From Bdellovibrionales bacterium (GTDB lineage: Bacteria > Bdellovibrionota > Bdellovibrionia > Bdellovibrionales > CAYMLA01): a stretch of 64,000 nt of DNA. Shown here in pieces: positions 3,445-52,552 of the stretch. The notes beneath the pieces were generated by a model. It had not been told where the DNA came from. It searched no databases and saw only the letters and a list, made by a program, of their open reading frames with translations. The stretch is taken from assembly GCA_965217115.1 (NCBI GenBank), contig OZ244239.1, positions 1,920,001-1,984,000 of the forward strand, written 5' to 3'. Made by a program: the position numbers and the translations under genes. Position 1 is the stretch's first letter; every line of letters starts with the position of its first letter.

Positions 3445-4272
3445 ATGAGAAAGAAGAAAAGAGAAAGCAATGACAAATTGGAGCAGGGCTCTTTTGATAA
3501 GTATTATTATTATCAAAAATCAGTTCAGGGGCCTGAGGGTGATGTCATTTTTTTAAAGGATACTTATAAAGAATTGAGAAAAAAAAGCCCAAGAACAATG
3601 TGTGAGGATTTTTGTGGAACTTTTTCAATTTCCTGTGAGTGGGTGAAGTTAGGCTCTGAGTTTAAGGCTGTCTCAGTGGATATTGATTCTGATCCTATTG
3701 AATATGGCCGACAAAATTACCTGTCTCTTTTGAATGAAGATGAGAAGAGTCGAATTCAGGTTTTTGTATCCAGTGTTTTAGACAAAGCTTTACCTAAGGT
3801 GGATATCGTTTCGGCGATGAACTTCTCATATTTTCTTTTTAAGAAGAGATCGGAGTTAAAAGCTTATTTTGCTAGCGCTTATAGTAGAATTAATAATGAT
3901 GGTATTTTTCTTGTTGATTGTTTTGGCGGGAGCCAATGTCAGCAGTCTATCGAAGAGGAGACGGAGCATAAAGAGGAGAAATTCAGCTATTTTTGGGATC
4001 AAGATAGTTTTAATCCCGTAACCAATGAAGCTCAGTTTTACATCCATTTTAAACGCAAGGGTGAGAAAAAAAGAGAAAAAGTCTTTTCTTATGATTGGCG
4101 TATGTGGAGTATTTCAGAAATCCGTGAGGTCATGGAGGAAGTGGGTTTTAGTAAAACCTATGTTTATTGGGAAGGCACAACCAAAGATGGCGATGGGGAT
4201 GGCAAGTTTGTACAAACTCAAGTAGGGGAGGAGTGTGAGGCTTGGATTTCCTACATTGTCGCCAAAAAATGA
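3445..4272 (+). CDS. Class I SAM-dependent methyltransferase-like protein
   Basis: EDFCGT motif-I variant, VDID acidic motif II, NFSY, GIFLVD. Confidence 0.65.
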   Translation: MRKKKRESNDKLEQGSFDKYYYYQKSVQGPEGDVIFLKDTYKELRKKSPRTMCEDFCGTFSISCEWVKLGSEFKAVSVDIDSDPIEYGRQNYLSLLNEDEKSRIQVFVSSVLDKALPKVDIVSAMNFSYFLFKKRSELKAYFASAYSRINNDGIFLVDCFGGSQCQQSIEEETEHKEEKFSYFWDQDSFNPVTNEAQFYIHFKRKGEKKREKVFSYDWRMWSISEIREVMEEVGFSKTYVYWEGTTKDGDGDGKFVQTQVGEECEAWISYIVAKK

Positions 4273-5933
4273 TCTGAGATTTTGGCAAATGACGGCGTTT
4301 TTTAATGGGGCTTTATTATTAGGCTCAGACATTCGTTCGGCAGCGATGCTCGCAGGGAGAGCATGCGCACCAATCCGAACTCGCCGAATAACAAAACCCC
4401 ATTAAAAAACTTTCACTTGAAATCTAAGATTGACTGGGAACAGTGGGGTTTAAGAATAGAAAAAGGGACTTTAGTGGTCTGAGACTTGGACAAATGATCT
4501 GAGGTTTGGGCAAATGACGGCGTTTTTTAATGGGGCTTTATTATTAGGCTCAGACATTCGTTCGGCAGCGATGCTCGCAGGGCGAGCGTCGCACCAATCC
4601 GAACTCGCCTAATAACAAAACCCCATTAAAAAACTTTTATTTGAAATCTAAGATTGACTGGGAACAGTGGGGTTTAAGAACAAAAAAAAGGGACTTTAAT
4701 AATTCGAACTCATCTAATGATCTGAGATTTGGGCAAATGACGGCGTTTTTTAATGGGGCTTTATTATTAGGCTCAGACATTCGTTCGGCAGCGATGCTCG
4801 CGCTGCGAGCATGCGCACCAATCCGAACTCGCCGAATAACAAAACCCCATTAAAAAACTTTCACTTGAAATCTAAGATTGACTGGGAACAGTGGGATTTA
4901 AGAACAAAAAAAAGGGACTTTAATAATTCGAACTCATCTAATGATCTGAGATTTGGGGAAATGATGCGTTTTTTAATGCCCTCTCTTATTAAGCCCAAAT
5001 AAATGTTTAGGCGCACCGCCTACGCCGTTTTCAAAGGAGAGTTTTTTTAGATGGGATTTTATTATTAGGCTCAGACATTCGTTTGGCAGCGCTGCTCGCG
5101 CTGCGAGCGTCGCACCAATCCGAACTCGCCTAATAACAAAACCCCATTAAAAAACTTTTATTTGAAATCTAAGATTGACTGGGAACAGTGGGGTTTAAGA
5201 ACAAAAAAAAGGGACTTTAATAATTCGAACTCATCTAATGATCTGAGATTTGGGGAAATGATGCGTTTTTTAATGCCCTCTCTTATTAAGCCCAAATAAA
5301 TGTTTAGGCGCACCGCCTACGCCGTTTTCAAAGGAGAGTTTTTTTAGATGGGATTTTATTATTAGGCTCAGACATTCGTTTGGTAGCGATGCTCGCGCTG
5401 CGAGCATTGCACCAATCCGAACTCGCCGAATAACAAAACCCCATTAAAAAACTTTCACTTGAAATCTAAGATTGACTGGGGACAGCGGGGTTTAAGAATA
5501 GAAAAAGGGACTTTAATGGTCTGAGATTTGGGGAAATGATGCGTTTTTTTAATGCCCTCTCTTATTAATCCCAAATAAATGTTTAGGCGCACCGCCTACG
5601 CCGTTTTCAAAGGAGAGTTTTTTTAGATGGGGCTTTATTATTAAGCGAGTTCGGATTGGTGCGTATGCTCGCCCTGCGAGCATCGCTGCCGAACGAATGT
5701 CTGAGCGTAATAATGAAGGTCCATCTAAAAAAGCGGTTCATTTGCCAGAAACAAGCATGTTTGGGTGGACCGCCTACGCCGTTTTCAAAGGAGAGTTTTT
5801 TTAGATGGGGCTTTATTATTAAGCGAGTTCGGATTGGTGCGTATGCTCGCCCTGCGAGCATCGCTGCCGAACGAATGTGTGAGCGTAATAATGAAGGTCC
5901 ATCTAAAAAAACGGGTCATTGGCCAGAAACAAG
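4268..5933. repeat. Array of seven ~114-bp palindromic hairpin elements with two kinds of repeated linker
   Basis: Hairpins at 4297-4410, 4522-4634, 4745-4858, 5041-5155, 5338-5452 (core in one orientation) and 5618-5732, 5795-5912 (core inverted); near-identical linkers, no unique spacers. Confidence 0.95.
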
Positions 5934-6437
5934 CTCAGACATTGTGAAGAGCGGAGAGAGCTGCAAGTTTAGGTCATCGATTTTTTGAGAATCTTTTCCA
6001 CGATGTATAACACATAGGACGTGATCGATAATGGCATTTTGTTGGCGAAGAACTTTCGTGCTTTCAATGACTTGCCCTCCTGTGGTGATGACATCTTCTA
6101 TGATACAAACTTTTTTTCCGGAAAAATCAAAACCTTCGGCACTTTTACAAGTGCCATATTCTTTGGCAGATTTTCGAACAAAGATACAAGGAATTCCTGT
6201 GTGTAGGGAGAGAGCTGTACCAATGGGGATTCCTCCCATTTCTAAGGCAGCCAGAGCTTCTGTGTCTTGAGGTATGAGTTTAGCCATGTGTTGGGCGATT
6301 TCTTTTAGGAGGTGGGGTTGAGCTTCAAAACGATATTTATCAAAATACTCGCTTGAGCGTTGCCCTGATCGCAGGAGAAAATCCCCTGTAAGATAGGAGG
6401 CTTTGTGAATCTCTTGACCGAGTGTGTGTTTATTCAT
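5916..6437 (-). CDS. pyrE: Orotate phosphoribosyltransferase
   Basis: GDFLLRSG..S..YFDKY, FVRK..KEYG, PRPP motif IIEDVITTGG. Confidence 0.93.
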   Translation of the reverse strand: MNKHTLGQEIHKASYLTGDFLLRSGQRSSEYFDKYRFEAQPHLLKEIAQHMAKLIPQDTEALAALEMGGIPIGTALSLHTGIPCIFVRKSAKEYGTCKSAEGFDFSGKKVCIIEDVITTGGQVIESTKVLRQQNAIIDHVLCVIHRGKDSQKIDDLNLQLSPLFTMSELVSGQ

Positions 6438-7489
6438 TTTTTTACCTCATGTTTTTGTGAGTGTTGGGTTTTTTTTTGCTTTTGCCATTTTTCGAGTGCG
6501 TATTGTCTTAAGTCTGCAACTGAATCTAATTCATCGACGATTTCAACACCGAGTAGAGTTTCGATGGCATCCTCTAAGGTTACAATGCCAGTTGTATTTC
6601 CTTGGTTATCAATGACGAGAAACATATGTTCTTTTGTTTGGATAAAACGCCTGAGAGCATTTGCCACTGAGATACCTTCATCAACTTGTTTAATAGGGAT
6701 TTTTAATTGCTTTAGAGAGGTTTGATGTTTGTCTTGGGATGAAGCATCCATAATGGAATAGCGTAAAACTTGCCCTGTGACTTGATCAAGATGCTCGCTA
6801 TAAATAGGGATGCGTGAAAAGCGTATAGGTCGATGTTTTTGGATGGTTTGATCTACGGTGGTGTTTTCCTCCATAGCAAGAATGACTGAACGTGGAGTCA
6901 TAATGTCAGAGACATAAATCATATCTAATAGAAGTAGATTTTTAATGATGAGTGATTCCTTTTGATCGATGGCTCCTTCTTTAGAACTCATCTCAGCAGT
7001 GACAATGACTTCTTGCCTGGTAACAGATTGGCTTTCTGAATTAGAGATAGATTTAGAAATAATTTCTAAAAGAAGGACAACGGGGTAGGTAAAAAAGATC
7101 AATGCTTGAATGAGATAGGCACAACTCGGAGCTAGAGTTTTCCAGTAAGTGACCCCTAAGGTCTTAGGGATTATTTCAGAGAAAACAAGAATAGTTAGAG
7201 TGAGCACTCCTGAAGCTATGGCAACAAGTTCACTCCCGTATAATGAATGGACTTGTGCGCCAACTCCAGTGGCACCCACCATATTGGCGGCTGTATTGAC
7301 AGATAGAATAGCGGCAAGGGAGCGATCAATATTATCTTTGAGTTGTTGTAGGATAAAACCGCTTTTTCGACCCTCATTAGTGGCAACTTTTATATAAGCA
7401 GGGCTGGTGGATAGAATAACAGATTCTAAAGTGGAACATATAAAAGAAATACAGACAGTGATGAAGATGTAAATTACTAGAAGAGTCAT
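6434..7489 (-). CDS. CNNM/DUF21 + CBS-domain membrane protein (HlyC/CorC family)
   Basis: SFICSTLE, SEIIPKT, DIMTPR, FSRIPIY, GIVTLEDAIE. Confidence 0.88.
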   Translation of the reverse strand: MTLLVIYIFITVCISFICSTLESVILSTSPAYIKVATNEGRKSGFILQQLKDNIDRSLAAILSVNTAANMVGATGVGAQVHSLYGSELVAIASGVLTLTILVFSEIIPKTLGVTYWKTLAPSCAYLIQALIFFTYPVVLLLEIISKSISNSESQSVTRQEVIVTAEMSSKEGAIDQKESLIIKNLLLLDMIYVSDIMTPRSVILAMEENTTVDQTIQKHRPIRFSRIPIYSEHLDQVTGQVLRYSIMDASSQDKHQTSLKQLKIPIKQVDEGISVANALRRFIQTKEHMFLVIDNQGNTTGIVTLEDAIETLLGVEIVDELDSVADLRQYALEKWQKQKKTQHSQKHEVKK

Positions 7490-7623
7490 TTGTTAATGAC
7501 TCTTCTGTGAGTGCCAAATTGAAAAATTATCTTGTTCATACACTCCTAAATTTTAAATTCACAAGAAAACATTAGAAAAGATATTCTGTGAGAAGGGTCC
7601 ATCGTTATTAATGTTTGAAGACC

Positions 7624-9729
7624 CTATTTTTTTTCCTCTTCTCTTTTCTTTTGGTATTCCTTTGAGAGTTCTTCTTGAACGTTTCGAGGGCATTGGGAAT
7701 AACGAGTGAATTCCATAGTAAATTCCCCCTTACCTTGGGTTGCTGAACGAAGATCAGTAGAATAACCAAACATTTCGCTCAAAGGAATATCTGCTGTCAC
7801 GGTGACAAAGCCTTCGAGAGTCGTTGTGCCGCCAATGATACCACGGCGTTGATTGATTTGTCCCATGATAGAACCTTGGAACTCATCAGGAGCTTGAACT
7901 TCAAGCTTCATAAGAGGTTCTAGAGCAACTGGTTTAGCGTCTGCAACGGCTTGTTTCATCGCCTGTGCGGCGCATATTTTAAAGGCCATTTCACTGGAAT
8001 CGACATCGTGGTAGGCGCCATCTTCTAAGTCGACTTCAACGTTAACGACAGGGAAGCCAATAAGTTCCCCTTTAACCAAGGCCTCTTGAAAACCTTTTTC
8101 ACAGGAGGAAATATATTCTTTAGGGATACGACCGCCAGTGACTTTGTTGTTAAAGCGGAAGTTGGTTTCTTCGCCGTCACTAATAGGGCGAATATGACCG
8201 AGAACTTTTGCAAACTGCCCAGAACCACCCGTTTGTTTTTTATGAGTGTAGTCTAGGACGGCTTCAGAACCGATGGATTCACGGTAGGCGACTTGTGGTG
8301 CTCCCGTGATAACTTCGCACTCAAATTCCCGTTTCATACGTTCGACATAGACTTCTAAATGAAGCTCTCCCATGCCTTGAATAATGGTTTCGTTAGATTC
8401 TTCATCTCTTGATACGCGAAAGGTAGGATCTTCACGACGGAATTTTTGTAGGGCTTTAGAAAATTTAGCGGCTCCAGATTTTTCTTTAGGAGCGATGGCC
8501 AGAGAGATCACGGCATCTGGAACGTGCATAGAGGTCATACTGAAATTAACCTTGCCATCGGTGAACGTATCCCCAGAGGAACATTCGATACCAAAGAGGG
8601 CGACAATATCTCCAGATTCTGCTTGTTCAAGATCTTGCATCTCTTCAGAGTGCATGCGCACGAGTCGGGGGATTTTTACTTTTTTGCCGTTGGCGACGTT
8701 AATAATAAAATCACCTTTTGTCATTTTACCTTGGTAGATACGCATATAAGTGAGCTGACCAAAACGGCCGTCTTCTAGTTTAAAGGCTAAGGCCACAAGA
8801 GGTTTACTGGAGTCAGAGGCGAGTGTGACTTTTTCCTCATCCTTGTCTAGATCGAGCGCCGTGTTCTCTCTATCTTGTGGAGTGGGGAGATAGCGATTAA
8901 CACCATCGAGAAGAAGTTGAACTCCCTTGTTTTTAAAAGCTGAGCCACAGTAAACAGGGCAAAGTTTAAGGGCTAAAACTCCCTTACGAATAGCTCTGTC
9001 TAAGTCATCAGGACCAACTTCTTCTTCCATTAGAAATTTTTCACCAACTTCATCATCAAAATCAGCAGCGGCAGCGACAAGTTCTTGGCGAGCTGTTTTA
9101 GCGGCGTCAAGGATGTCCTCTGGAACATCAGTTTCAATGATCTCTTCTCCATCATCACCTTTAAAAGTGTAACCTTTCATGCGCACAAGGTCGACGACTC
9201 CTTGATGATTGTCCTCAAGACCAATAGGTAATTGTGCCATGACAGCGTTGAGTTTAAGTTTTTCAACCAAGGCATTCTTGACGCGAATAGGGTCTGCGCC
9301 TTGACGATCAAGTTTATTTATAAAAGCAATTCGCGGAACATTGTATCGTTTCATTTGACGATCGACAGTGATGGATTGTGATTGAACTCCTGATACGCCA
9401 CAGAGAACAAGAATAGCACCATCAAGAACACGCAAAGCTCTCTCCACCTCAATGGTGAAATCCACGTGGCCCGGGGTATCAATAATATTAACTGTGTGAT
9501 CTTTCCAGTGGACCTGTGTTGCGGCTGATTGGATGGTGATTCCTTTCTCTCTCTCTAAATCCATGGAATCCATTTTAGCGCCGACACCATCTTTACCTCT
9601 TACATCGTGTATAGAGTGAATGCGTCCACCGTAGAATAAAATACGCTCGGTAAGAGTTGTTTTTCCAGAGTCAATATGGGCGGAGATACCGATATTTCTA
9701 ACTTTTTCTAGATTCCATTCTGTTGTCAT
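7624..9729 (-). CDS. fusA: Elongation factor G (stand-alone, mitochondrial-EF-G1-like type)
   Basis: [32 protein letters not shown]; start set at ATG 9729 after GAGG. Confidence 0.97.
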
Positions 9730-9949
9730 TCTTGCAGTCCTCAATTAATTAATATGGGTTAATAGTTAAACGAGAATATCGTCAAAAAAATTATTTGTTG
9801 AAATTCTCTATAAAAAAACATAAGGAAGAGGGATAGCATAGGCCTGAACAAAGTGCAAAGCGAGTATAGCCCATAGTGGAGTCGCATTTTTATTAAAAAC
9901 CATTTGTTTTAGGGAATACCATAGTATTTTTAATAACTTAGAGGTCTTT

Positions 9950-10606
9950 GTGTTTAGGCAGAAAAAAGATTTAGAACCTTGCAAATACGGGTTTCCCAGT
10001 GTGGATCAGGCAGATAGTGATGGCGTGGTGTGTGTTGGTGGCGATCTTATGCCATCTACTCTGGTGGAGGCTTATTCCCGAGGGATTTTCCCCTGGCCCT
10101 TTGATAATGATGAGACCCAAATTCCTTGGTTCAGTCCTGAGGAGAGGGGGGTTTTGGAGTTCAAGGATCTTCACATACCGAGGAGTCTCCAAAAGAAGAT
10201 CGGTAAATCCCATTGGAAAATCACTTACGATAGGGCCTTTGACGAAGTTATTTCTGGTTGTTCGAGATCATCATCTTCTGATCAGAAGGGGACATGGCTT
10301 TATCCGTTTATGAAAAAGGCCTATATGAGTCTTCACGAAATGGGTTACGCCCACAGTGTTGAGTGCTGGAGTGGTGAGAAGTTGGTAGGAGGTTTGTACG
10401 GGGTTTTGACTGAGAATTTTTTCAGTGCTGAGAGTATGTTTTATTTAGAGTCAGGAGCTTCTAAATATTGCCTAGTAAAAACGGTGGAGCATTTGCAGAG
10501 CATTGGCCACCAGTGGATGGACATTCAAATGGTGACACCTGTGACAGAAAGTTTTGGAGGAAAGTACATCAGTCGTCAGAGTTTCTTGGAAAAGGTGTTT
10601 TTTTAA
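9950..10606 (+). CDS. aat: Leucyl/phenylalanyl-tRNA--protein transferase
   Basis: GGDL...AY..GIFPW, WFSP..R, HSVECW...LVGGLYG, ESMF...ASK. Confidence 0.95.
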   Translation: MFRQKKDLEPCKYGFPSVDQADSDGVVCVGGDLMPSTLVEAYSRGIFPWPFDNDETQIPWFSPEERGVLEFKDLHIPRSLQKKIGKSHWKITYDRAFDEVISGCSRSSSSDQKGTWLYPFMKKAYMSLHEMGYAHSVECWSGEKLVGGLYGVLTENFFSAESMFYLESGASKYCLVKTVEHLQSIGHQWMDIQMVTPVTESFGGKYISRQSFLEKVFF

Positions 10607-10616
10607 AGTGGCCTGT

Positions 10617-12026
10617 TTATTGGTTATAACCAAAGAGGTTTTTGGCTTTAATGACTTTTGCAATCTCCTCGGGAACAAATTCCTCCCACATGGGGTTATT
10701 CTCTTGCAGGAGCTGGCGAACTTTGGAAGAGTGCATAGAAACTTGTGTCAAGTCACAACCTAGAAGATTAACAATTTTATTGTTCTCCATAAGATAGTTG
10801 TAGAGATGTTTTAGCTGCGAGGGAGGGTTGAAGGTGCTGGCTGTTTGGCAACTCTCTTTAGTGTGTAGAGGGTAGACGTAGACAGTGGATTTTCCATTGA
10901 TCAACTTCCCAAAGGCTTCAAGAATTCCACCATTAAGATGGGAGTAGAACTCTTCATCAAAAAGTTTTTCTAGATGTCCAGCACCTATGACCATGCCAAT
11001 AGCATTTTGCGTGAAACGTCCAAGATAGTTTTTAACATCAACAAATAAAACGTAGTTTGAGATTAAGATCGTGTGCCCTAGGGAGGTGAGTGATTCTACC
11101 CGTTCGAGAAAATCTTGTATAGGGGTGTCTTTTGAACCCCCTTTGAGGCTTTGCATGGTGATCTCATTAACAATAATGATGTCTTCATGAGTGTCCGTGA
11201 GATTGTAGTCTTTTATAAATTGTTTTTCACCGTGGTTGAGGATATCCAAATTAACTTTAGTGAATGGCCTGAAGGACCCTCTTTGCAAGAGGATGGGTTT
11301 TTTATAGAAAACATCAGATGGTTGTTTTACGTTGCCATCGGACCCAAATAAGACAGCGTCAGTGAACCCTTGCTCAATGAGTTCCAAGCTCAATAACCGA
11401 TTATTAAAGTGATTGAGATTGGGACCGTCGGTGTGAATCATATCAATTTCAATTCTCTGCCGGTTGAGGTTTCCTGTTAGCGATGAAATAAAGTCACGAC
11501 TATTATCTAATTGATAAAAAGCGGCGTGGGTGAGATTAACGCCGAGTATCCCTATGGCCTCTTGTTGTTGCTGGTTATTGGTATCGTGTAGACGAACGTG
11601 AATGACGATTTGGTTACAAGGGGTGTTGGGCTGGGTTTGGAAACGAACTCCTAGCCAACCATGGCATTCGTTTGTGCCCTTAAAATTACGAGCGGCAACA
11701 GTGTCGGCAAAGGCAAAGAAGCATGTGTTATCTCCGCGAGTTTCGGAGAGTCTCTCTTGCAGGAGATTGAATTCATGTTCGAGCATTTTGTTAAGACGTG
11801 ACTCAACGACGTATCGGCCAGAGTCTTCTTTCCCGTAGATGTCATCGCTGAATTTCATATCGTAGGCGGAAATCGTCTTAGCAACGGTACCGGCGGCGCC
11901 TCCTGCTTGGAAAAAATAACGTGCGACTTCTTGGCCGGCACCAATTTCAGCAATACTGCCATAGATGTTGGAGTCGAGGTTGAGAGCAAGAGCTTTCTCT
12001 ATGGTGGAAGTATTGTGTGTATCCAT
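10617..12026 (-). CDS. Conserved protein: putative CinA-like N-terminal domain plus nucleotidyltransferase-like C-terminal domain
   Basis: AEIGAGQEV..AGGAAGT..K..SAY N-terminus; RGSFRPFT, and HSSKVR near the C-terminus, resemble NadD-type motifs. Confidence 0.5.
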   Translation of the reverse strand: MDTHNTSTIEKALALNLDSNIYGSIAEIGAGQEVARYFFQAGGAAGTVAKTISAYDMKFSDDIYGKEDSGRYVVESRLNKMLEHEFNLLQERLSETRGDNTCFFAFADTVAARNFKGTNECHGWLGVRFQTQPNTPCNQIVIHVRLHDTNNQQQQEAIGILGVNLTHAAFYQLDNSRDFISSLTGNLNRQRIEIDMIHTDGPNLNHFNNRLLSLELIEQGFTDAVLFGSDGNVKQPSDVFYKKPILLQRGSFRPFTKVNLDILNHGEKQFIKDYNLTDTHEDIIIVNEITMQSLKGGSKDTPIQDFLERVESLTSLGHTILISNYVLFVDVKNYLGRFTQNAIGMVIGAGHLEKLFDEEFYSHLNGGILEAFGKLINGKSTVYVYPLHTKESCQTASTFNPPSQLKHLYNYLMENNKIVNLLGCDLTQVSMHSSKVRQLLQENNPMWEEFVPEEIAKVIKAKNLFGYNQ

Positions 12027-14595: not shown

Positions 14596-14614
14596 ACAAA
14601 GAAGGTAGAGAGAT

Positions 14615-22115: not shown

Positions 22116-23031
22116 GGGGCCTGAAAAGAAGGTTGAAGTTATTATTAAAAAATCGTGGGGGTCTCTACGAGAAATACCTAAGAGGACTTGGAAAGATATT
22201 GTTCACAAAGCTAAGGCTTGTATCCTATCTCAAGTGAGTAACGAACATTGTGACGCTTATCTTTTGTCAGAGTCTAGTTTGTTTGTGTACAATGACCATT
22301 TTGTGATGATCACCTGTGGAACGACAACTCTGGTGGAAGCTGTTACGGAGTTTCTAAAAACAGTGCCAGTGGATAATATCGAGACTCTTATCTATGAGCG
22401 TAAGAACGAGCATTTTCCCCATTACCAGAAGTCAAATTTTTTTGAAGACATATATAAATTAGAAAAAATCTTACCAGGAAAAGCATGGCAGTTTGGTGAT
22501 GAAGACAACCATCACCTTCTATTATTCCAGATGGGCAGTTCGTATCAGCCTGAAGAGGATGATATGACCGTAGAGGTTTTAATGCATGGGATTCAAGGGG
22601 AAGCTAAAACTTTTTTTAAAGATATACATCAGTCTAAAGAAAAAATAAAAAAATTAAAAATAGCGGATATTTTTTCTGGTTTCTTGGTAGATGACCATTT
22701 GTTTGAGCCATTGGGTTATTCTTTGAATGCCATAAAAGAAAACTGGTATTACACAATTCATGTGACTCCAGAAGAACTAGGTTCCTATGTGAGCTTTGAG
22801 ACTAATTATTTTTTACAAGAAAGCTTGCACGAGATTGTCGAAAAGGTTTTAGCGATATTTCAGCCAGAATCTTGTGATGTGATTGTTTTCCATAAAGAGC
22901 AGAGAGGTGTTGAGGATTTAAAAGGTTATCGTTTACGAAGTCACATCGAAGAATATTTAGGTGGATACAGTGTTTCATTTAAGCATTTTTATCAACCACA
23001 GTTGGGGCCGAAAAGGGCATTTAGGGTTTAA
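22105..23031 (+). CDS. speD: S-adenosylmethionine decarboxylase proenzyme, eukaryote-type
   Basis: FEGPEK, YLLSESSLFV (self-cleavage site), TCGTT, GYSLN, TIHVTPE..SYVSFE. Confidence 0.88.
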   Translation: MFFEGPEKKVEVIIKKSWGSLREIPKRTWKDIVHKAKACILSQVSNEHCDAYLLSESSLFVYNDHFVMITCGTTTLVEAVTEFLKTVPVDNIETLIYERKNEHFPHYQKSNFFEDIYKLEKILPGKAWQFGDEDNHHLLLFQMGSSYQPEEDDMTVEVLMHGIQGEAKTFFKDIHQSKEKIKKLKIADIFSGFLVDDHLFEPLGYSLNAIKENWYYTIHVTPEELGSYVSFETNYFLQESLHEIVEKVLAIFQPESCDVIVFHKEQRGVEDLKGYRLRSHIEEYLGGYSVSFKHFYQPQLGPKRAFRV

Positions 23032-23080
23032 TCTTCTATTAAAAATAAAAAAGGCCTCGATCTTAACGATCGAAGCCTAA
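23025..23080 (-). terminator. Rho-independent terminator block, copy 1 (duplicated at 25747-25802)
   Basis: Minus strand AGGCTTCGATC-GTTAA-GATCGAGGCCT followed by a T-tract. Confidence 0.8.
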
Positions 23081-23110
23081 GAAGATTATTTAAACAAGAC
23101 CAATGGGAAC

Positions 23111-25746: not shown

Positions 25747-25802
25747 GGTTTAATCTTCTATTAAAAACAAAAAAGGCCTCGATCTTAATAATCGAAGCCT
25801 AA
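25747..25802 (-). terminator. Rho-independent terminator block, copy 2
   Basis: 53 of 56 nt identical to 23025-23080 by manual alignment. Confidence 0.8.
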
Positions 25803-25843
25803 AGACATTAAATCAGTCAGTGTGACCTTGAGAAACTAAAATA

Positions 25844-42901: not shown

Positions 42902-42919
42902 AGAAAGTTTAAGAGAGGG

Positions 42920-44593: not shown

Positions 44594-44672
44594 AAATACG
44601 GGGCATTTTTTCTTCAGTTGAGAAAGGCAAGAAAAGATAGACTTATACACAGTCGCTTAGTAGCATTTATGT

Positions 44673-45599
44673 ATGATCTGCGTGGAGAGGCTGAGTAAAT
44701 TTTACGGCAATTATAAGGCCTTGGACAGAGTGTCCTTTACGATCAAAGAAGGTTCTTTAGTGGGACTTCTTGGAGCTAACGGGGCTGGTAAAACGACATT
44801 AATGGATGTTCTTGCTGGAGTCACTCACTATCAAGAGGGGGCAGTGTCTATTGATGGAGAGATGGTTGGAGATAGCCTTTCGGTGAAAGAAAAACTAGGT
44901 TATCTTCCTGATCAACCGCCGCTGTATTTAGATATGACTGTTAGTAATTACTTGCGGTATGTTGGGATTTTAAAAAGAGTTACACCGGAAAGAATCAATC
45001 AGAGAGTTGAAGATGTTTTAGGAAAACTAGAACTAGAGGATTACGCTCAATGTATTATTGAAAAATTGTCAAAAGGGTATCGTCAACGGGTGGGAATTGC
45101 ACAAGCTCTGATAAATAATCCTAAGATTCTTATTCTGGATGAGCCGACGGTGGCCCTTGACCCTCGGCAAAGAGCGCAGGTGAAGGATCTAGTTAAATCT
45201 CTAAAGAGAGATCATACGATTTTGCTTTCTACGCATATTTTATCTGACGTAGAGGATATCTGTGATGAGGTGGTTTTAATTTCAGAGGGTAAATTAAAAA
45301 CAAGGGGTTCTCTGGAGTCGTTATCAAAGATTGATGATGGTGGAGAAACCATCTTCCATTTAAGTCTAAGCAGTGATGTAAAAGTTAAAGAGCTTTTTTT
45401 GATCGATGAAGTAAAAGATGTAAAGAAAATTTCTCAGAAAAAATGGCAAATTTCTTTTATGAAAAATGAAAACGAGAGATCGAGTGCTTCGGATCGCTAT
45501 TTAGAAATTTTAGCTCGTCATAGTTGGGGGATTCGTGAGTATGTTTGTGCATCTAAAAACCTAGAGAACCTTTTTTTTACAGATGAGAATGTAAAATGA
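44673..45599 (+). CDS. ABC transporter ATP-binding protein (GldA-like)
   Basis: GANGAGKTT, LSKGYRQR, LILDEPT, STH. Confidence 0.93.
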   Translation: MICVERLSKFYGNYKALDRVSFTIKEGSLVGLLGANGAGKTTLMDVLAGVTHYQEGAVSIDGEMVGDSLSVKEKLGYLPDQPPLYLDMTVSNYLRYVGILKRVTPERINQRVEDVLGKLELEDYAQCIIEKLSKGYRQRVGIAQALINNPKILILDEPTVALDPRQRAQVKDLVKSLKRDHTILLSTHILSDVEDICDEVVLISEGKLKTRGSLESLSKIDDGGETIFHLSLSSDVKVKELFLIDEVKDVKKISQKKWQISFMKNENERSSASDRYLEILARHSWGIREYVCASKNLENLFFTDENVK

Positions 45600-46363
45600 T
45601 CTTTGAAATATGGAAAAAAGAGATAAAATCGTTGTTTTTATCACCAGGGTTGTATGTTGTGTTTTCTCTTTGCGCATCATTGTTTAGTTGGAGATTCTTG
45701 ATTAACTTGCAATATTTTGCACAGAACTATCAGAATCAGGTTTTTCAACTAGGTCAGGCAAATTACTCTATGCATATTCATTTTGGATTGTTTGCAGGGC
45801 ATTTATCATACCTGAATTTGGTGTTTATTCTCTTTACCCCCGTTTTGACCATGAAATTATTGGCAGAAGAGAAAAGATCGGGAAGTTTAAAGTTGTTATT
45901 CTCCAGCCCAATTTCTTCGTGGCAAATTATTGGAGGTAAGTACTTGGCAGCAGTGACATTGATGTTCTGTGTGCTTCTTTTGTCTTTTTTATTTCCCCTT
46001 ATTTGCGTATTTTTTGCGGAAGTGGATTGGATTTTATTATTGGGATCTTATTTCGGTATGTTTCTTCTAGGGTGTTTGTATGTGGGTATAGGAATATTTA
46101 GTTCATCGTTAGGGTCATCGGTGATGGTGTCGTTAATTTTGGGAATTTTTCTCAATGTAATGGTTTGGTTTTTGGGTGTTAATGCAGAGATGGCTGACAG
46201 TCAATGGATACGGGAAGCTTTGCAACATTTATCTTTGAATTATCACATCTCGGGTATGATTCAGGGTGTGTTTCATCTAAGTGCTGTGGTCTTTTTTGCA
46301 AGTCTGACGGGGCTATTTTTACTATTGTCTGAGACATTTTTGCAATTTTTGAAGTGGAAGTAA
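45596..46363 (+). CDS. ABC-2 permease (GldF-like)
   Basis: Multiple TMs, LTMKLLAEEKRSGS, GKYLA. Confidence 0.88.
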   Translation: MIFEIWKKEIKSLFLSPGLYVVFSLCASLFSWRFLINLQYFAQNYQNQVFQLGQANYSMHIHFGLFAGHLSYLNLVFILFTPVLTMKLLAEEKRSGSLKLLFSSPISSWQIIGGKYLAAVTLMFCVLLLSFLFPLICVFFAEVDWILLLGSYFGMFLLGCLYVGIGIFSSSLGSSVMVSLILGIFLNVMVWFLGVNAEMADSQWIREALQHLSLNYHISGMIQGVFHLSAVVFFASLTGLFLLLSETFLQFLKWK

Positions 46364-46364
46364 A

Positions 46365-47903
46365 ATGGGCGGGTTATTAAAGGTTTATTCTATATTATTA
46401 CTCCTAAGTCTTTTGTCTTATGTTATGGGTCGGTACACTTTAGGCTATTTCATTCCTTTTTTCTGGTTGCCCATTGGCTTAAGTGCACTCCTCTTTGTTT
46501 TAATATTATTTCATCTGCGAGAGAAAATCGTATTGTTCTTTAGAATGAAATCAACTCACCATAGAGTAAGCGCAGGTAGTAAGCTGTTTTTGATTATGTG
46601 CTTTGTGGCTTTTTTGAATTTTTTATCGGTTCGCTACAATGTAAGTTATGATTTTTCGCCAGAACAGATGAATTCTTTGAGTGTGTCTTCTTTTGGAGTT
46701 TTGCAGAAATTAGAGGAACAGGCAAAAATCGTGTTCTTTTATCGTCAAGGTGAGCAGAAGAGCCAGGCTGAAAAGCACAAGTTTGTGAATTTAATGCGTA
46801 AATATCAGGATGTAACATCAAAATTAGAGGTCAATTTTGTTGAGGTGACAGAAAACCCAGATATAGCTAAACGTTTTGGAGTGGATAAGGGAGCAGGTGT
46901 TGTTTTTGTAGAATACAAAGGTCATCGGAGCCGTGTTGATCGAGTAGCAGAGGCTGATGTGACAAGTGCGTTGAACATTGTGACGGAGAGGGGGCCAAAG
47001 GAGAAGGTTTATTTTTTAACAGGCCATGGGGAAAAAGAAGATCAAGACCCTTCATCGTTAGATGGAATTAAATCATCTGTATACTTATTAGAGGGCAATG
47101 GCTATCTTCTTAAAAAACTGAGTTTAATCACAAAAACTCGTGTCCCAGAGGAGGTCAAGACGCTTTTTATTATTGGCCCTCAGGAAAGTTTTCTAGAGCA
47201 TGAGGTGGAGGCATTGATCAAATATGTGCAAAGGGGGGGGAGTCTGTTTTTAGCTTTGGATCATACTGTTGCCAGAGGTGTATCATCTTTAAAGCCATTG
47301 TTAAATTTTTTGGGTATCGAATATAAAAATCATTATGTTATTGGAATGACTCAAACATCTAATGGGTGGGCTTTGACACCGAAGCTGACGTTGGCGACAG
47401 CGTTTAATTCTCAGAACCCTTTAACCAGTGAATTTAAAGAGGGAGAGTATGCCGTTTTTCGCACTCCAGGGTCTTTAGTTATAAAAAAAGCTAAAACGAA
47501 CAAAGTAAAAAAGAGAGTCAGTACTTTATTGAGTACAGGGGTGGATGTTCGTGCTTTGGGCTCTTTGGATTTGAAGGGAATCCAGAAAAAAGGACCATTT
47601 TCTTTAGCTATGTTGATGAAATTAGGAAAAAGGGCATCTAAGGTTGTGGTGGTGGCTTCGAGTAGTTTTATGACCAATCAACTGTGGAGTCATGGCGTAA
47701 ACAGAGATTTTTTTCTTAAAGTAACTTCTTTTTTAACGGGCAGTAAGAATCAGGTGAAGGTAGAGCCTCCCCATTGGCGTTTGGGCAGATTTTCACTAAC
47801 TCCTGACGGGTTTAATCTTTATGCGTTGCTTTTTGCTGTGCCCTTACCTATTGTTTTATTAGGAATGGCTATTTTTCGTTACATACGTAGAAAAGGTATT
47901 TAG
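46365..47903 (+). CDS. GldG-family ABC auxiliary component
   Basis: YDFS...NSLS, VYFLTGHGE, GGSLF, N..F, C-terminal TM. Confidence 0.85.
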   Translation: MGGLLKVYSILLLLSLLSYVMGRYTLGYFIPFFWLPIGLSALLFVLILFHLREKIVLFFRMKSTHHRVSAGSKLFLIMCFVAFLNFLSVRYNVSYDFSPEQMNSLSVSSFGVLQKLEEQAKIVFFYRQGEQKSQAEKHKFVNLMRKYQDVTSKLEVNFVEVTENPDIAKRFGVDKGAGVVFVEYKGHRSRVDRVAEADVTSALNIVTERGPKEKVYFLTGHGEKEDQDPSSLDGIKSSVYLLEGNGYLLKKLSLITKTRVPEEVKTLFIIGPQESFLEHEVEALIKYVQRGGSLFLALDHTVARGVSSLKPLLNFLGIEYKNHYVIGMTQTSNGWALTPKLTLATAFNSQNPLTSEFKEGEYAVFRTPGSLVIKKAKTNKVKKRVSTLLSTGVDVRALGSLDLKGIQKKGPFSLAMLMKLGKRASKVVVVASSSFMTNQLWSHGVNRDFFLKVTSFLTGSKNQVKVEPPHWRLGRFSLTPDGFNLYALLFAVPLPIVLLGMAIFRYIRRKGI

Positions 47904-47911
47904 GGGAAAAA

Positions 47912-48934
47912 ATGGAAACATTGATTTCAAGATCACCGACACGAGTGGATTTATCGGGTGGGACGTTGGATATGTGGCCTATTTATACCTTTCTAGGAAT
48001 GGCTTGTACGGTGAATTTGGCCATTGATATTTGGACCGAAGCGCGATTAACTCCACAATTAGACTCACAGTCACGGTCTAAAAAAAACATTCGTATTATC
48101 TCCAATGATTTAAATTTAGATATGGCGTTCGCTTCTTTAGAGGATTTTTTTAAGAATGTTGACCCTCGTTTGTCTCTGTATCGACCTGTATTGGAGTATT
48201 GGAGGCCTGAATATGGGTTTACCTTGGAGACGAGTTCGCAAAGCCCCGTGGGGGGTGGGTTGGGTGGCAGCTCTTCTTTGATAATCAGTTTGTTGAAAGT
48301 TTTTAGTAAATGGTTGGGCAAAGAGAAGGGGATAAATTCTGATGTGGATTTTCTGGTGAGATTGGCTGCAAATATGGAAGCTCACTTGTTGGGAACACCG
48401 ACGGGGACGCAGGATTATTACCCTGCAATATCGGGTGGAATGAGTATTATACATTATGGAGTGGATGGTGTTGAGCAGAAGATATTGAAAAATGATTTAT
48501 CAGAGCTTCAGCAACATCTTGTTTTGGTTTATACTGGAAAGCCCCACCATTCAGGTTTAAATAACTGGGATGTATTGAAGAGGTTTGTTGAGAAAGAAAG
48601 TAAAACGATGATTGCTCTTGAAAAATTAAAAAATGTGTCTCAGCGTATGGCGGAGGCTTGTCAGTCTTCTAGTTGGGATAAACTACCTGGGCTTTTTAAT
48701 GAAGAGTATGAATGGCGTTTACAACTTTCTCCTGAGTTTGCGAGCGATGAAATTGAAAAATTAGGTCATTTGGTAAAAGATTTAGGAGTTAAAGGAATAA
48801 AGATTTGTGGAGCAGGGGGTGGTGGATGTGTTTTGCTTTATGTTCCTCTTGAAAAAAGAGAGACGGTTGTGGAAAATTGTGAAACTCATGGCTTTACTGT
48901 TTTACGAATGAATCCTGTGGGGGAGTTGAGTTAG
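47912..48934 (+). CDS. GHMP-family sugar kinase (HddA-like)
   Basis: PTRVDLSGGTLD, PVGGGLGGSSS, GTQDY, KICGAGGGG. Confidence 0.85.
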   Translation: METLISRSPTRVDLSGGTLDMWPIYTFLGMACTVNLAIDIWTEARLTPQLDSQSRSKKNIRIISNDLNLDMAFASLEDFFKNVDPRLSLYRPVLEYWRPEYGFTLETSSQSPVGGGLGGSSSLIISLLKVFSKWLGKEKGINSDVDFLVRLAANMEAHLLGTPTGTQDYYPAISGGMSIIHYGVDGVEQKILKNDLSELQQHLVLVYTGKPHHSGLNNWDVLKRFVEKESKTMIALEKLKNVSQRMAEACQSSSWDKLPGLFNEEYEWRLQLSPEFASDEIEKLGHLVKDLGVKGIKICGAGGGGCVLLYVPLEKRETVVENCETHGFTVLRMNPVGELS

Positions 48935-48936
48935 AC

Positions 48937-49770
48937 ATGTCAAAAAAGAAAAGCTCCCCACAGGTTGTGCGGTCCATTGGAATTTCGTTAGGAGGTGCTA
49001 AGAGCTTTCGAACCAATGTTGTTATTTTTGAGTTTTATCCTAGCCAAGATCAGGTTTTTCTTAAACAACTTTATTGTAACATCCGTGATGAGAAAGAGAT
49101 ATCTTCGGACAACCAGGTGCTAGAGATCATTAATAACGAGAAGAAAGTTGAGGCGGTGGTTTTTGATGTGCCTTTGAGTTTGCCTAAGGCTTTGCGTTGT
49201 GGGGTGAATTGTCCAGGGTATGATGTGTGCGACTGCACAGAGGTGGCTTGGATTCGTAGTTACTATGAAGAGAGAAATAAGAAAATGAGGCCTAAGAAGA
49301 ATTTTACACCCTATACTCAGAGAAGCTGTGATATTTACCTATCAACAGAGTTAGGGGAGAAGTTTAATATTCCAGATGCTTTGGGATCAAATTTAGCTCC
49401 TCTTACAGCAAGAGCGATGTATCTAAAAAACATGACATCATTGCCGTGTGAAGAGACATTTGCACGTGCTTCTTTGTGGCGATTGGGTAGAAATTTGAAA
49501 ATAAATAAATCCCATTTGAGATTTTATAAGCACGCTGTGATGGGCGATGAGAGCAGAGGTGCTATCCTCAAGAGCATAGAAAATAGCAAGATGGTTTTTA
49601 TCTACGAGCAAGACCGTAAAATGTTGATTGATAACCCCGGGTGTTTTGAAGCTTTTATCTGTGGCCTAGTGGGATATTTAAAATATCAAAGGCAATTACA
49701 GAAACGCCCTAAAGGCTTTCCTGGAAGGTCAGTTTGGCCTCTATTGCCTTCTGAGGTACTACCTTTGTAG
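48937..49770 (+). CDS. DUF429-like (RNase H-fold) protein
   Basis: IGISLGG, VFDVPL.LP, C-terminal EAFIC. Confidence 0.55.
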   Translation: MSKKKSSPQVVRSIGISLGGAKSFRTNVVIFEFYPSQDQVFLKQLYCNIRDEKEISSDNQVLEIINNEKKVEAVVFDVPLSLPKALRCGVNCPGYDVCDCTEVAWIRSYYEERNKKMRPKKNFTPYTQRSCDIYLSTELGEKFNIPDALGSNLAPLTARAMYLKNMTSLPCEETFARASLWRLGRNLKINKSHLRFYKHAVMGDESRGAILKSIENSKMVFIYEQDRKMLIDNPGCFEAFICGLVGYLKYQRQLQKRPKGFPGRSVWPLLPSEVLPL

Positions 49771-49851
49771 AGAATTTGAAGTATTTTTTTTGCATATTTC
49801 TTGGGCGTGAAGGTACTATATTATTTCGTTTAGAGTTGAGGGGAAATATTT

Positions 49852-50928
49852 ATGGCAAAATGGAGAGAGGTGGCAAATATTTCAGGAGATGTTGTGTTTT
49901 TTGATTATGTTACTAGTGGCAAGGGAAGAGGTGCAGAAGAGGTTTTTGTTTGGGATTTGGATAAAACATATTTAGACACTCGTTGGGGCTCATTAAAAGA
50001 GTTGTTAAGAACAGCGATGGAGCGAGCTTTTCAGAAGAAAAATATTCCAGGGACGAGTTCTCTCTTAAAAGCCTTAAGTCTAAGCTGGATTGAAGCACGA
50101 GGAGTGGATTATTTCCCTATTTATTTTATTACAGCCTCTCCTCCTCAAATAGAAAAGAAAATTAATCAAAAATTAATTTTAGATGGCATACAGCCTTTTG
50201 GATGTTTTTTTAAAGATAACCTACAGAATCTTCACCCGAAACGTATGTGGCGTTTAACGAATCAAGTTGGATATAAATTGCAAGCTCTACTGCAATTACG
50301 CTGTGAATTGCGTGAGGACGTGAGACAGATATTTTGGGGAGATGACAGTGAATCGGATGCGATTATTTATAATCTGTATTCAGATATTTGTTCCAGACGA
50401 CTCGATGACAAGGAGTTACGTTATATTTTAAAATCTTTACATGTGGTTGGTGAGCAGACGGAAAGTATTTTAAGATTACGTGAAAAAATCCCTAAACAGG
50501 ACCCCGTGGACAAGATATATATTAATTTGGCGACAGATACGGACCCTGATTATTATTTAAAGTTTGGTCGCCGTACGCTTCCGACGACAAACACTTTTCA
50601 AGCGGCGGTGGATTTATTTCAAGATGGTCGCTTAGGGGCTGAACAGGTTTTACATGTGGCTCAAGATATGAAGATGAATTATGGTTTTACAAATGAGGAG
50701 ATAGAGAGAAGCTTTGACGAGTTGGTACGTCGTCAGGTTTTGAGTCGTCCCAGTGCTGAGGGGTTGTTGCCTTATCTTCAGAAAGAAGGCTTTGTGCCTT
50801 TGGAGTATGAACACTCAGTTCAGCCTTTAGAAGTGCTGAAACAGGAAGGTGAAATGATCGTGGAGCTTGAAGGTGTTTTTGAACCGTGGGTTCCAGAGAG
50901 AATTGATTATTTGCATGATTATCGCTAA
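49852..50928 (+). CDS. HAD-superfamily phosphatase (App1/lipin-like)
   Basis: WDLDKT (DxDxT), FITASP, K, GDDSESD. Confidence 0.65.
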   Translation: MAKWREVANISGDVVFFDYVTSGKGRGAEEVFVWDLDKTYLDTRWGSLKELLRTAMERAFQKKNIPGTSSLLKALSLSWIEARGVDYFPIYFITASPPQIEKKINQKLILDGIQPFGCFFKDNLQNLHPKRMWRLTNQVGYKLQALLQLRCELREDVRQIFWGDDSESDAIIYNLYSDICSRRLDDKELRYILKSLHVVGEQTESILRLREKIPKQDPVDKIYINLATDTDPDYYLKFGRRTLPTTNTFQAAVDLFQDGRLGAEQVLHVAQDMKMNYGFTNEEIERSFDELVRRQVLSRPSAEGLLPYLQKEGFVPLEYEHSVQPLEVLKQEGEMIVELEGVFEPWVPERIDYLHDYR

Positions 50929-50936
50929 GGAAGTGT

Positions 50937-51278
50937 TTGATGTGGTTATTTATTGGTAAGATATTGGTAGCAGCTATTTTAATCAGTACTGTGTCTTGGC
51001 TATCAGGGAAAAAGACAGCGTTAGCAGGTTTTTTGGCGGCACTGCCTTTAACGACTCTGATTGCTTTGGCTTTTTCTCACATTGAGTGGGGGAATCAGAG
51101 ACAATCGGTGGAATTTGCTAAGAATATTTTTTTAGCAGTGCCTTTGTCACTGTTGTTTTTCCTTCCCTTTCTATTGGCTCAAAGATGGAACCTTAGTTTC
51201 TGGACTTGTTATGGGAGTGGAGTTTTTCTATTGGGAATAGGGTACTGTGTCCACTCCCACTTAGCACGGTCACTGTAA
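50937..51278 (+). CDS. Small membrane protein (DUF3147-like)
   Basis: Four TMs, AGFLAALPLTTL. Confidence 0.7.
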   Translation: MMWLFIGKILVAAILISTVSWLSGKKTALAGFLAALPLTTLIALAFSHIEWGNQRQSVEFAKNIFLAVPLSLLFFLPFLLAQRWNLSFWTCYGSGVFLLGIGYCVHSHLARSL

Positions 51279-51320
51279 TTCCGTAGTCAGGGCATAGAAT
51301 TTATAAGGTTTCCATATTGT

Positions 51321-51344
51321 GGTTCTTTGTGATAAATAGTGGAA
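51321..51344 (+). repeat. 24-bp direct repeat, copy 1
   Basis: GGTTCTTTGTGATAAATAGTGGAA, identical to 52038-52061. Confidence 0.9.
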
Positions 51345-51404
51345 TATAGTAATTCTAGCTACTTACCCTAAAGGTCGTTTTAAATAGCAAGCTCCTGAAA
51401 ACAC

Positions 51405-51435
51405 AAAAATGGCCTCCAAGGTAGGAAGCCATTTT
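51405..51435 (-). terminator. Rho-independent terminator of the 51475-51885 gene
   Basis: Minus strand AAAATGGCTTCC-TACCTT-GGAGGCCATTTTT. Confidence 0.7.
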
Positions 51436-51474
51436 AAAACTCTGAGTTTTGTGATTTTTAATTCGTCTCAGAAA

Positions 51475-51885
51475 CTAGTGAAGAATGAACCCGTTTTTAT
51501 CGTAAACTTGGTTTCCATCTTGAAAGCCATCTATATTTTTATTTGTTAATAAATTAACTTTTCCAGAAATAGGCCACTCAAAATCATAAAACGACCCATA
51601 TTGCCAAGCCACAAAGAAATATTCTATCACAGTAAAGATTCCATCTGGACCACATGTGTCCATTTGTGCTATTCTTGATTTTTGTGCAATTGGCTGAACT
51701 TTAGACATTCTTATCGCTTCGTTATAGCATTCTTCAACTGTATTAAGCTCTTTGACTAAAGTTCTCGCGGATGTCTTTTCGATACAGCCGTATTCAACAC
51801 TAATTTTCTTGAATTCGAGAAAACACCGTGAAGCAAAAGATGAAGTCGATACTAACAACAATAAACTTAATAAAATAATTTTCAT
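51475..51885 (-). CDS. Small secreted Cys-containing hypothetical protein
   Basis: Signal peptide MKIILLSLLLLVSTSSFA, 4 Cys, GGGAG RBS. Confidence 0.8.
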   Translation of the reverse strand: MKIILLSLLLLVSTSSFASRCFLEFKKISVEYGCIEKTSARTLVKELNTVEECYNEAIRMSKVQPIAQKSRIAQMDTCGPDGIFTVIEYFFVAWQYGSFYDFEWPISGKVNLLTNKNIDGFQDGNQVYDKNGFILH

Positions 51886-52037
51886 TTCAATCTCCCTGTA
51901 GTTTAGATACTATTGCTATTGCCATTACTATTCCAAGATCAGGTCGAAATTAACAAAGGTTGAGTGTTTTTCTCTGCTCAGAAAATAGACAGGCCTTATA
52001 AGAGAGACAAAAATTGTCATAATTTTGTTTTTCTGAG

Positions 52038-52061
52038 GGTTCTTTGTGATAAATAGTGGAA
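52038..52061 (+). repeat. 24-bp direct repeat, copy 2
   Basis: Identical to 51321-51344. Confidence 0.9.
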
Positions 52062-52103
52062 CTGTTCCCAAGAGATCCATTGACCCATTGATTGAATACG
52101 GCC

Positions 52104-52552
52104 TTTTTTTCTAGAGTCTCTCCCAAAAGAATCCAGTTCTTTTCGGCGAGTTTGGCTTGGCGACTTCCATTGCATTTCCCTGCAATGGAAGGTGACAAAC
52201 GGATGTTTGAGCAAGAAAAGGGCTGGATTCTTTTGGGAGAGACTCTAGAAAAAAAACGACTCATTAGAAAAAAACTGCCTCCACCATTGTTTGTCATATG
52301 TTTGTCATAAAGAATCCAGATAGTTCAAGAAAACTATAAGAGCCTTCTCCCTAGAATATCTCCCAAAAGAATCCAGTTCTTTTCGGCGAGTTTGGCTTGG
52401 CGACTTCCATTGCATTTCTTTGCAATGGGAGGTGACAAACGAATGTTTGAGCAAGAAAAGGGCTGGATTCTTTTGGGAGAGACTCTAGAAAAAAAACAGC
52501 TCATCAGAAAAAAACTGCCTCCACTATTGTTTGCCTGTTTGCCATAAAGAAT
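52104..52552 (+). repeat. Two tandem ~150-bp palindromic hairpin elements (period 240 bp), same core as the 4.3-5.9 kb array
   Basis: Arms 52104-52144 and 52215-52255 form a 41-bp stem with two T.G pairs; apical CTTCCATTGCA/TGCAATGGAAG; second copy 52351-52496. Confidence 0.95.

Follow-up and report, generated by a model that had tools for sequence, protein, structure and literature searches.

Several described systems resemble the hairpin element treated here, which occurs at two loci in a 64,000-nucleotide stretch of DNA from a member of the Bdellovibrionales (the window, meaning the whole stretch analysed). REPINs are the closest in form. According to the available sections of their description (Bertels and Rainey 2011, PMC3116915), these are extragenic, multi-copy long hairpins that form tandem higher-order arrays and conserve two terminal repetitive extragenic palindromes (REPs), while a self-complementary segment with little conservation changes in a compensatory way. 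The element in the window is likewise an extragenic, multi-copy hairpin with tandem arrays and compensatory arm change, and no target duplication was found around its copies in the relative G466 (3.85 vs. 3.98 for the null). Its architecture is reversed, however: a central asymmetric loop is kept, whereas the outer arms vary.

The analysed genome, labelled G000, is one 2.17-Mb contig that is 99.4% complete, and the window is G000:1920001-1984000. Relatives carry labels such as G005, G276, and G466, and loci in them carry L numbers. Copies of the locus-1 kind are called type A and copies of the locus-2 kind type B. In the type A clusters and in G466, conservation is central, and the two conserved end palindromes of a REPIN are missing. 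A cognate RAYT (REP-associated tyrosine transposase) gene flanked by the repeat was not found in G000, G466, G276, or G438, and no RAYT gene occurs in the copy-richest genomes or beside the copies examined. The element also lacks a GTAG tag. From TIRtrons and TIRYT it differs in that it does not flank Y1 genes and has neither this tag nor the CGTC one; the paper on these systems and on CGTC-type REPs (Di Nocera et al. 2013, PMC3733652) makes no mention of Bdellovibrio in the part of its text available.

Other systems share single features. In the accessible part of a review (Huang and Lilley 2016, PMC5061560), a kink-turn is a bulge followed by G.A/A.G pairs between two helices, with a standard bulge of three nucleotides and other lengths counted as non-standard. 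The strand of the element that reads GCGAG has this order, and an earlier note on this DNA called the loop loosely kink-turn-like. The likeness is only a loose one: the GTYY bulge has 4 nt, the canonical helix is closed by a G.U pair, GA/GA is replaced in some lineages, and no L7Ae was found in five carrier genomes. Ends of the integron attC type (RYYYAAC...GTTRRRY) were not seen by eye, no IntI-specific profile having been run; G000 has three tyrosine recombinases, and the one inspected sits in an integrative island away from the type A arrays. Retron noncoding RNA (msr-msd between a1/a2 arms) lies directly upstream of a reverse transcriptase (RT) gene, whereas copies here are dispersed and the covariance model described below has no match at the type VI retron locus of G000. 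Finally, type B alone resembles a MITE (a miniature transposable element bounded by inverted repeats).

Fold, range, and placement of the family

All nine cores reported in the earlier note were located, and the identities of 13/15 and 15/17 claimed between the two loci are correct. A degenerate 17-mer of the core has nine exact matches in the window and one match with three mismatches; when up to three mismatches are allowed, chance alone would give 1.13 matches, and none of 100 shuffles reaches ten. A motif scan of the whole genome finds 101 copies in 50 clusters, 61 of them type A and 40 type B. A covariance model built from 39 sequences matches G000 105 times. Within the order it has matches in 21 of 151 genomes, spread over 18 of 69 genera, and it has none in 127 genomes sampled from the phylum outside the order.

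A GTDB-wide scan for the exact pattern gave 14 loci, 13 of them from records titled Bdellovibrionales or families thereof; the remaining one is without arms and was treated as chance. Metagenomes gave 19 matches, of which 14 are family members and five, also without arms, were set aside in the same way. There was no pattern match in viral contigs and no match in phage and plasmid collections. Against Rfam, the window has no match at gathering scores, and at a relaxed E-value the best is E 4.9 at locus 1. Neither an Rfam match nor an absence of further copies, which the earlier note had named as grounds for doubting it, was therefore found, and its proposal of a single family at both loci is borne out by many more copies with a common fold. 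Literature on Bdellovibrio and Bdellovibrionales repeats, inverted target duplication, and IS1595 MITEs contained no description of the family (subscription papers and supplements were outside the search). It is apparently an undescribed, order-wide repeat of predatory bacteria.

The constant part of the core is 5'-RAGTTY facing GNATGTYYGA, and the apical stem and outer arms are variable. The compensatory helix first proposed, GTTCG/CGAAC at one locus and GTTTG/CAAAC at the other, proved to be in the wrong register: its key pair Y18-R64 is unpaired in 29 of the 39 aligned sequences, and copies 4 and 5 of locus 1 already set GTTCG against CAAAC. The supported register is TTGGY/RCCRA with YG/CG and GT/AT, and RNA folding of the window copies yields TTGGY/RCCRA unaided. 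The pairs T23-R64, Y26-G61, and Y18-G68 are formed in 39/39 sequences, with G.U where they vary; G15.U71 is present in all 39, and Y26.G61 is U.G in 25 and C-G in 14. In 79 further distinct copies, two-sided changes occur at all five inner-helix pairs and 97.9% are paired, as against 29-49% in slid-register controls on the same copies, although this alignment was fitted to the covariance model and hence leans toward the modelled structure. The two closing pairs covary as well (GC/CG/AU/UA).

The GCGAG strand folds better in 3/3 window stretches folded, both as RNA and as DNA, and the retention of G.U on it marks it as the folded strand. A conserved, strand-specific fold is thus supported by changes on both sides of the closing pairs and of the inner helix, by G.U on the GCGAG strand, and by its recurrence across the 21 genomes. 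Two details of the original description hold in part. In type A, the arms have an excess of G.U (G.T over A.C; 35 vs. 9 distinct events, p=1e-4). The excess is not significant in foreign arms (26 vs. 20, p=0.46) or in type B (11 vs. 8 distinct events). Tandem GA/GA is common but not invariant: in G271, AA faces GAA, and G007, G385, and three copies of G000 have GCA; weighted by genome, the left G stands at 87% and A at 93%, the right G and A at 98% each, the variants being A or an inserted C. At G000:C1:412749, 417015, and 1026556 (L191, L192), the core takes a third form, in which a C is inserted and a G-C pair beside the loop has changed compensatorily to T-A.

Carrier genomes hold from 1 to more than 100 copies, and presence is patchy within genera: G466 has 46 model matches, its four congeners none. 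A 5' motif and a TCAT flank are common to types A and B. In type A the 5' motif stands 60-64 nt ahead of the core in 54/61 copies, and the arms measure 24-36 bp in 59/61; among carriers this motif was found only in G000 and G276 and is not general. Four DNA sequencing runs of one sample, possibly the source of the assembly, cover both loci and contain no joint that skips the element cleanly, which is uninformative either way.

Most copies lie behind the 3' ends of genes or tRNAs, with the core's 3' arm toward the gene. Of 108 foreign copies, 59 have a facing stop codon within 100 nt on their 3' side and 24 on their 5' side, and tRNA 3' ends face them seven times on the 3' side and never on the 5' side. 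At 50 of the 61 type A copies, the gene lying upstream has an mRNA that reads the GCGAG strand. Orientation is the same at 8/8 tRNA-adjacent loci. At four of these (L137, L217, L123, and L052, the last adjoining a partial tRNA copy) the last bases of the far arm are the complement of the tRNA CCA; of the other four, two pair over 1-2 nt and two stop short. At the tRNA-Phe gene of one genus, where the tRNA was seen in 25 of 30 fetched loci, two sites are filled, 20 are empty (with 4-9-bp hairpins), and three are too short.

Type A clusters often bracket accessory genes, among them a RES/Xre pair, LysR, and ankyrin and leucine-rich repeat proteins. Since type A copies bracket small accessory-gene islands in G000, the family may influence gene turnover. 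Elements also recur near flagellin-like genes in three genomes (G007 L179, G011 L188, and L075) and upstream of lpxC in two (G000 L015, G276 L182), possibly as hot spots or as old shared insertions.

The nature of locus 2 had been missed at first: it is a miniature transposon carrying the hairpin, with terminal inverted repeats (TIRs), and of a kind that makes 8-bp target duplications. Type B copies extend to TIRs of roughly 25 bp that begin GGTTCTTTGTGATAAATAGTGG. There are 30 paired TIR ends in G000, spanning 212-522 nt, and 29 of them enclose the core's 5' motif; nested internal deletions are seen. The 8-bp duplication is exact at 16/30 sites and present with at most one mismatch at 20/30, while duplications of 6, 7, 9, and 10 bp would fit 1, 2, 1, and 0 sites. 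TIRs, a fixed duplication length, this size range, and nested deletions are the features of a MITE, and they account for the fixed arms of the 40 type B copies. The likeness is confined to type B of G000, the TIR being present in 0/40 relatives. No autonomous partner insertion sequence with these ends was found in searches that left the IS6 and IS1 families aside. From the 8-bp duplications and 5'-GG ends we presume insertion sequences of IS1595, IS6, or IS1 type. An IS1595-family fragment at G000:877003 was rejected as partner, its frame being truncated and such TIRs absent nearby. Because the type A 5' motif and TCAT flank sit just within the TIRs, type B likely descends from a type A unit. 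It would then be an example of one small element captured, and afterwards spread, by another.

Three observations on type B stand apart. One 2.3-kb block, with a type B MITE and a 535-aa gene in it, is present twice, at 96% identity and 1.58 Mb apart (G000:C1:12621-14894 and 1589449-1591725). A solitary TIR comparable to one in the window lies at G000:2041717. With origin and terminus placed from GC skew, the GCGAG strand is the leading strand in 31/40 type B cores vs. 24/61 (clustered) type A cores, a bias of type B that is unexplained for a DDE-type element.

Concerted change in the arms and a possible mechanism

The arms vary, and yet they change together. In 17 type A clusters, identity is 0.84-0.91 in the core, 0.59 in the arms, and 0.47 at the right end. 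Nearest type A copies differ by 68 double changes from one Watson-Crick pair to another, 73 one-sided changes, and 10 others. Only 12.8 doubles are expected if the arm sides are independent, and 35 of the 68 are transversions without a wobble intermediate. Between copies of G466, identity falls from 0.95-0.99 in the core to 0.78 in the apical stem, 0.43 in the arms, and 0.33 in the flanks. In the 27 of 35 G466 copies with arms of at least 15 bp (eight copies were left out), 1127/1136 outer-arm pairs are Watson-Crick and three are G.T; the apical stem has 37 G.T vs. 1 A.C. Selection on the fold accounts for the wobble-rich apical stem but not readily for wobble-free, locus-specific arms of 30-90 bp. 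The arms look templated rather than shaped by selection alone, as the earlier view had it: they are likely kept complementary by copying one from the other.

A host process of this kind is described. Template switching at quasi-palindromes perfects imperfect inverted repeats by copying of the nascent strand, according to the available part of one source (PMC7202029), and it would explain concerted, transversion-rich arm change. It is a mutational process of the host, however, and leaves the retention of the loop and the spread of the element unexplained. In bacteria, template-switch copying over such lengths (40-90 bp, 99% paired) has rarely been documented, and the arms would be a natural record of it.

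Perfect arms reach 76 bp, and the inner arm ends are A-rich. On the 3' side of the core, arm length correlates with distance to the gene end (rho 0.45, p=1e-4, n=69); on the 5' side it hardly does (0.09, n=33). The 5' arms of G466 are C-poor and T/G-rich, unlike 64 native post-stop stretches, and some words are common to several copies. Where arms overlap coding ends, no copying direction is evident. The 5' flanks of type A contain reiterations that share the 5' motif as their starting point but extend to different depths, comprising the motif alone (up to 10 times), the motif with half an arm, the motif with an arm and half a core, or whole copies. Examples lie at G000:C1:427500-428100, 1657400-1657800, 1814900-1818400, and 1908600-1913700, with 11-13-nt units repeated up to 10 times, a 66-nt unit repeated 4 times, and half elements.

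The explanation favoured here, tentatively and at slightly less than an even chance, is an orphan single-strand mobile hairpin, REPIN-like but inside-out and restricted to the Bdellovibrionales, with templated arms and a locus-2 form within a MITE. The core, 5'-RAGTTY-stem-GNATGTYYGA-3', folds on the GCGAG strand, and most copies lie behind 3' ends in the orientation given above. A nascent 3' end probably folds back, during replication or following a nick, with the opposite arm as its template. Such copying would make the arms change jointly, become near-perfect, and extend into host DNA such as the tRNA CCA. It would also erase the lopsided loop unless the loop were selected. The loop may be a recognition site in single-stranded DNA for a trans-acting enzyme that inserts the unit without target duplication, in the way that RAYTs act on REPINs; this transposase would now be missing from G000. 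One unit would then have been enclosed by TIRs of about 25 bp and multiplied to about 40 copies through a DDE transposase making 8-bp duplications, and the locus-1 arrays would have grown through local duplication and recombination between cores. The case for mobility of type A is weak.

A bolder version is unlikely: a new class of small element whose fixed lopsided loop directs nicking and fold-back synthesis, so that it writes its own arms by transferring the sequence of one flank to the other, host sequence as far as a tRNA CCA included. Its targets would be 3' ends of tRNAs and of genes with high expression, and it would be driven by an enzyme outside the Y1, IS110, DDE, and RT families or by host enzymes alone.

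Search for an enzyme and rival explanations

Several results weigh against a mobile single-strand hairpin. The order is rich in Y1 genes (117/151 genomes), yet none was found in G000, even with an order-specific profile, nor in G466, G276, and G438, and the link to an HUH/RAYT transposase suggested earlier is not supported. A hidden Markov model from 18 order-specific Y1 proteins had no match in a six-frame search of G000, and no core lies within about 1.5 kb of the 18 Y1 genes of the carriers G005, G011, and G271. The cores of G466 look young, yet neither Y1 nor IS110 is present there, and IS110 is absent from G000 too. Genes next to the elements include no mobile-element family that recurs from genome to genome: clustering of neighbour genes over carrier loci gave housekeeping families only, with 63 listed neighbouring open reading frames (ORFs) of G466 compared with G000 alone and not with Pfam, and no multi-copy transposase was found among the G000 paralogues. 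Family-directed searches, in which the full proteome was not scanned, thus yield no candidate for the driver. The retention of G.U fits RNA as well as DNA. The count of double changes may be partly inherited or inflated by conversion between copies. The direction of copying is inconsistent, as the anti-CCA ends point from host to element whereas the 5' arms of G466 differ in composition from native sequence. Lastly, arms do not end at gene ends beyond what constraint alone predicts (conditional permutation p=0.25).

The retron VI RT, IS110, GIY-YIG, L7Ae, and IS1595 were each checked, and none tracks the element. G000 has a single GIY-YIG protein, long and UvrC-sized. Its sole RT is a type VI retron enzyme with a helix-turn-helix (HTH) partner (G000:C1:1868366-1869599, L190), of a family present in 9/151 genomes, three of the nine being carriers; G276 has no RT. 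A weak Y1 match at G000 870734 was a spurious frame spanning two ordinary genes. The recogniser of the loop could be a new enzyme processing single-stranded DNA or RNA, the two copy-richest genomes being without a recognisable REP-type transposase.

Some genes met in these searches deserve mention in their own right. Both copy-richest genomes have a type VI retron (HTH and RT), that of G466 (L171:4981-6268) in an island 2.2 kb from an element. Divergent, order-specific, multi-copy Y1 (RAYT-like) genes occur in G005, G011, and G271 (L076-L095) with no element adjoining; in the order sample, a genome can have as many as 27 such genes. In G470, L196 and L200 each hold a reverse transcriptase behind a small ORF. 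By eye we take these small ORFs to resemble the Avd accessory protein, which suggests diversity-generating retroelements.

Among rival explanations, the loop may be a functional RNA motif, such as a kink-turn-like protein site, or a 3'-end stabiliser or termination aid where gene ends converge, that benefits the host and spreads passively, through recombination or hitch-hiking, while host template switching homogenises the arms. This reading, the next in probability, is unlikely on balance. RNA folding directly gives the covarying register, G.U is kept on one strand (as at G15.U71 and Y26.G61), and the bulge before G.A/A.G resembles the kink-turn as defined in the accessible part of PMC5061560. 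The mRNA of the preceding gene reads the GCGAG strand at 50 of the 61 type A copies, and a dedicated enzyme is unnecessary. At the tRNA loci L152 and L154 of G005, however, the 5'-side neighbour points away, leaving the GCGAG strand read by no flanking gene. The range of copy number and the patchiness within genera also speak against a host function, as do the departures from the kink-turn listed at the outset. In a different scheme, the core alone is mobile, inserting at AAAN behind highly transcribed genes, and fold-back synthesis upon insertion makes an inverted duplication of the target flank. Three filled tRNA-Phe alleles do have unrelated perfect arms of 19-24 bp directly after CCA where empty alleles have 4-9 bp, 25/25 tRNA-Phe trailers of the genus begin with TT, and the anti-CCA ends at half the tRNA loci, the A-rich inner arm ends, and the great length of some perfect arms would fit. 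This scheme is nevertheless quite improbable: the variable arm of G000 type A, G470, G276, and G466 is bounded by conserved ends that come from the element and so cannot be target DNA, a host stop codon in G276 is supplied by the element's arm, the arms of G466 are unlike native trailers, and the arm-length test is not significant.

The reiterations in the 5' flanks, all beginning at the 5' motif and ending at varied depths, together with the fixed orientation behind tRNAs, would suit a retro-element in which reverse transcription of a read-through RNA gives the GCGAG strand as cDNA and re-priming leaves 5'-anchored truncated repeats upstream of type A. Such an origin is very improbable, given that the only RT of G000 belongs to a retron family shared by just three carriers and that G276 has none; moreover, the short junction microhomologies (by eye) suit replication slippage, and a C-rich 5' flank is weak beyond G000 (p=0.052). 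A chance likeness between two unrelated decaying repeats, which might be argued from a shared part of only about 32 nt of core and short flank motifs, can practically be dismissed in view of 105 matches in G000, the recurrence of the fold and of changes on both sides in 20 other genomes, and the 5' motif and TCAT flank common to both types.

The two loci of the window

Locus 1 consists of seven tandem copies, five on the reverse strand and two on the forward strand, flanked by two convergent genes. The core of copy 1 (4323..4384, reverse) has arms of about 26 bp at about 4297-4322 and 4385-4410 and ends 51 nt from the stop codon of the ORF at 3445-4272. Copies 2 (4548..4608) and 3 (4771..4832), also on the reverse strand, follow in tandem units of about 223-225 nt. 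Copy 4 (5069..5129, reverse) belongs to a 297-nt unit and is likely a recombinant, given the likeness of its 3' arm to the arm family seen in copies 6-7; copy 5 (5366..5426, reverse) has chimeric arms of the same sort. The orientation is reversed in copy 6 (5645..5706, forward; 178-nt unit) and copy 7 (5823..5884, forward), the latter 32 nt from the stop of a phosphoribosyltransferase gene at 5916-6437. The type A 5' motif, CCRYTGTTCCCAG, lies at 4434..4446 on the reverse strand, 62 nt ahead of the core, with further copies at 4658-4670, 4882-4894, 5179-5191, and 5476-5488.

At locus 2, the MITE occupies 52038..52553 on the forward strand, from the start of the left TIR at 52038 to the end of the right TIR at 52553, with an internal right TIR end at 52316. 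It holds two type B cores on the same strand, copy 8 (52146..52212; 41-bp arms at 52104-52144 and 52215-52255) and copy 9 (52386..52452; arms at 52351-52384 and 52455-52495). The outer arms are therefore unequal between the loci, about 26 bp against 41 bp, much as first described. The 3' flank AAAAAA(C/G)N3-4TCAT, also part of that description, is present in 7/9 copies and absent from copies 4 and 5. The flanks of this MITE have no exact 8-bp duplication (5 mismatches), which makes it one of the ten sites without one. A solitary left TIR of the MITE lies at 51321..51345 on the forward strand, upstream of a 136-aa ORF (51475-51885). The solitary TIR, the ORF, and the MITE (51321-52553) may form a composite unit, whose outer flanks resemble a decayed duplication.

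Other repeats are found in and near the two loci. A REP-like hairpin with a GTAG tag, reading GTAGGCGGTGCGCCTA on the reverse strand, lies within the locus-1 units at 5005-5025, 5302-5322, 5581-5601, and 5770-5781 (the last partial), and its 12-mer is confined genome-wide to these four sites. A pair of 64-nt terminator-like repeats, 91% identical, stands at 23025-23088 and 25747-25810, behind S-adenosylmethionine decarboxylase and QueF genes. Adjoining the MITE, a diverged second repeat at 52580-52720 holds a simple hairpin ending in TCTGAGC; it has about six genomic relatives at 69-78% identity, which often lie beside type A or B copies.

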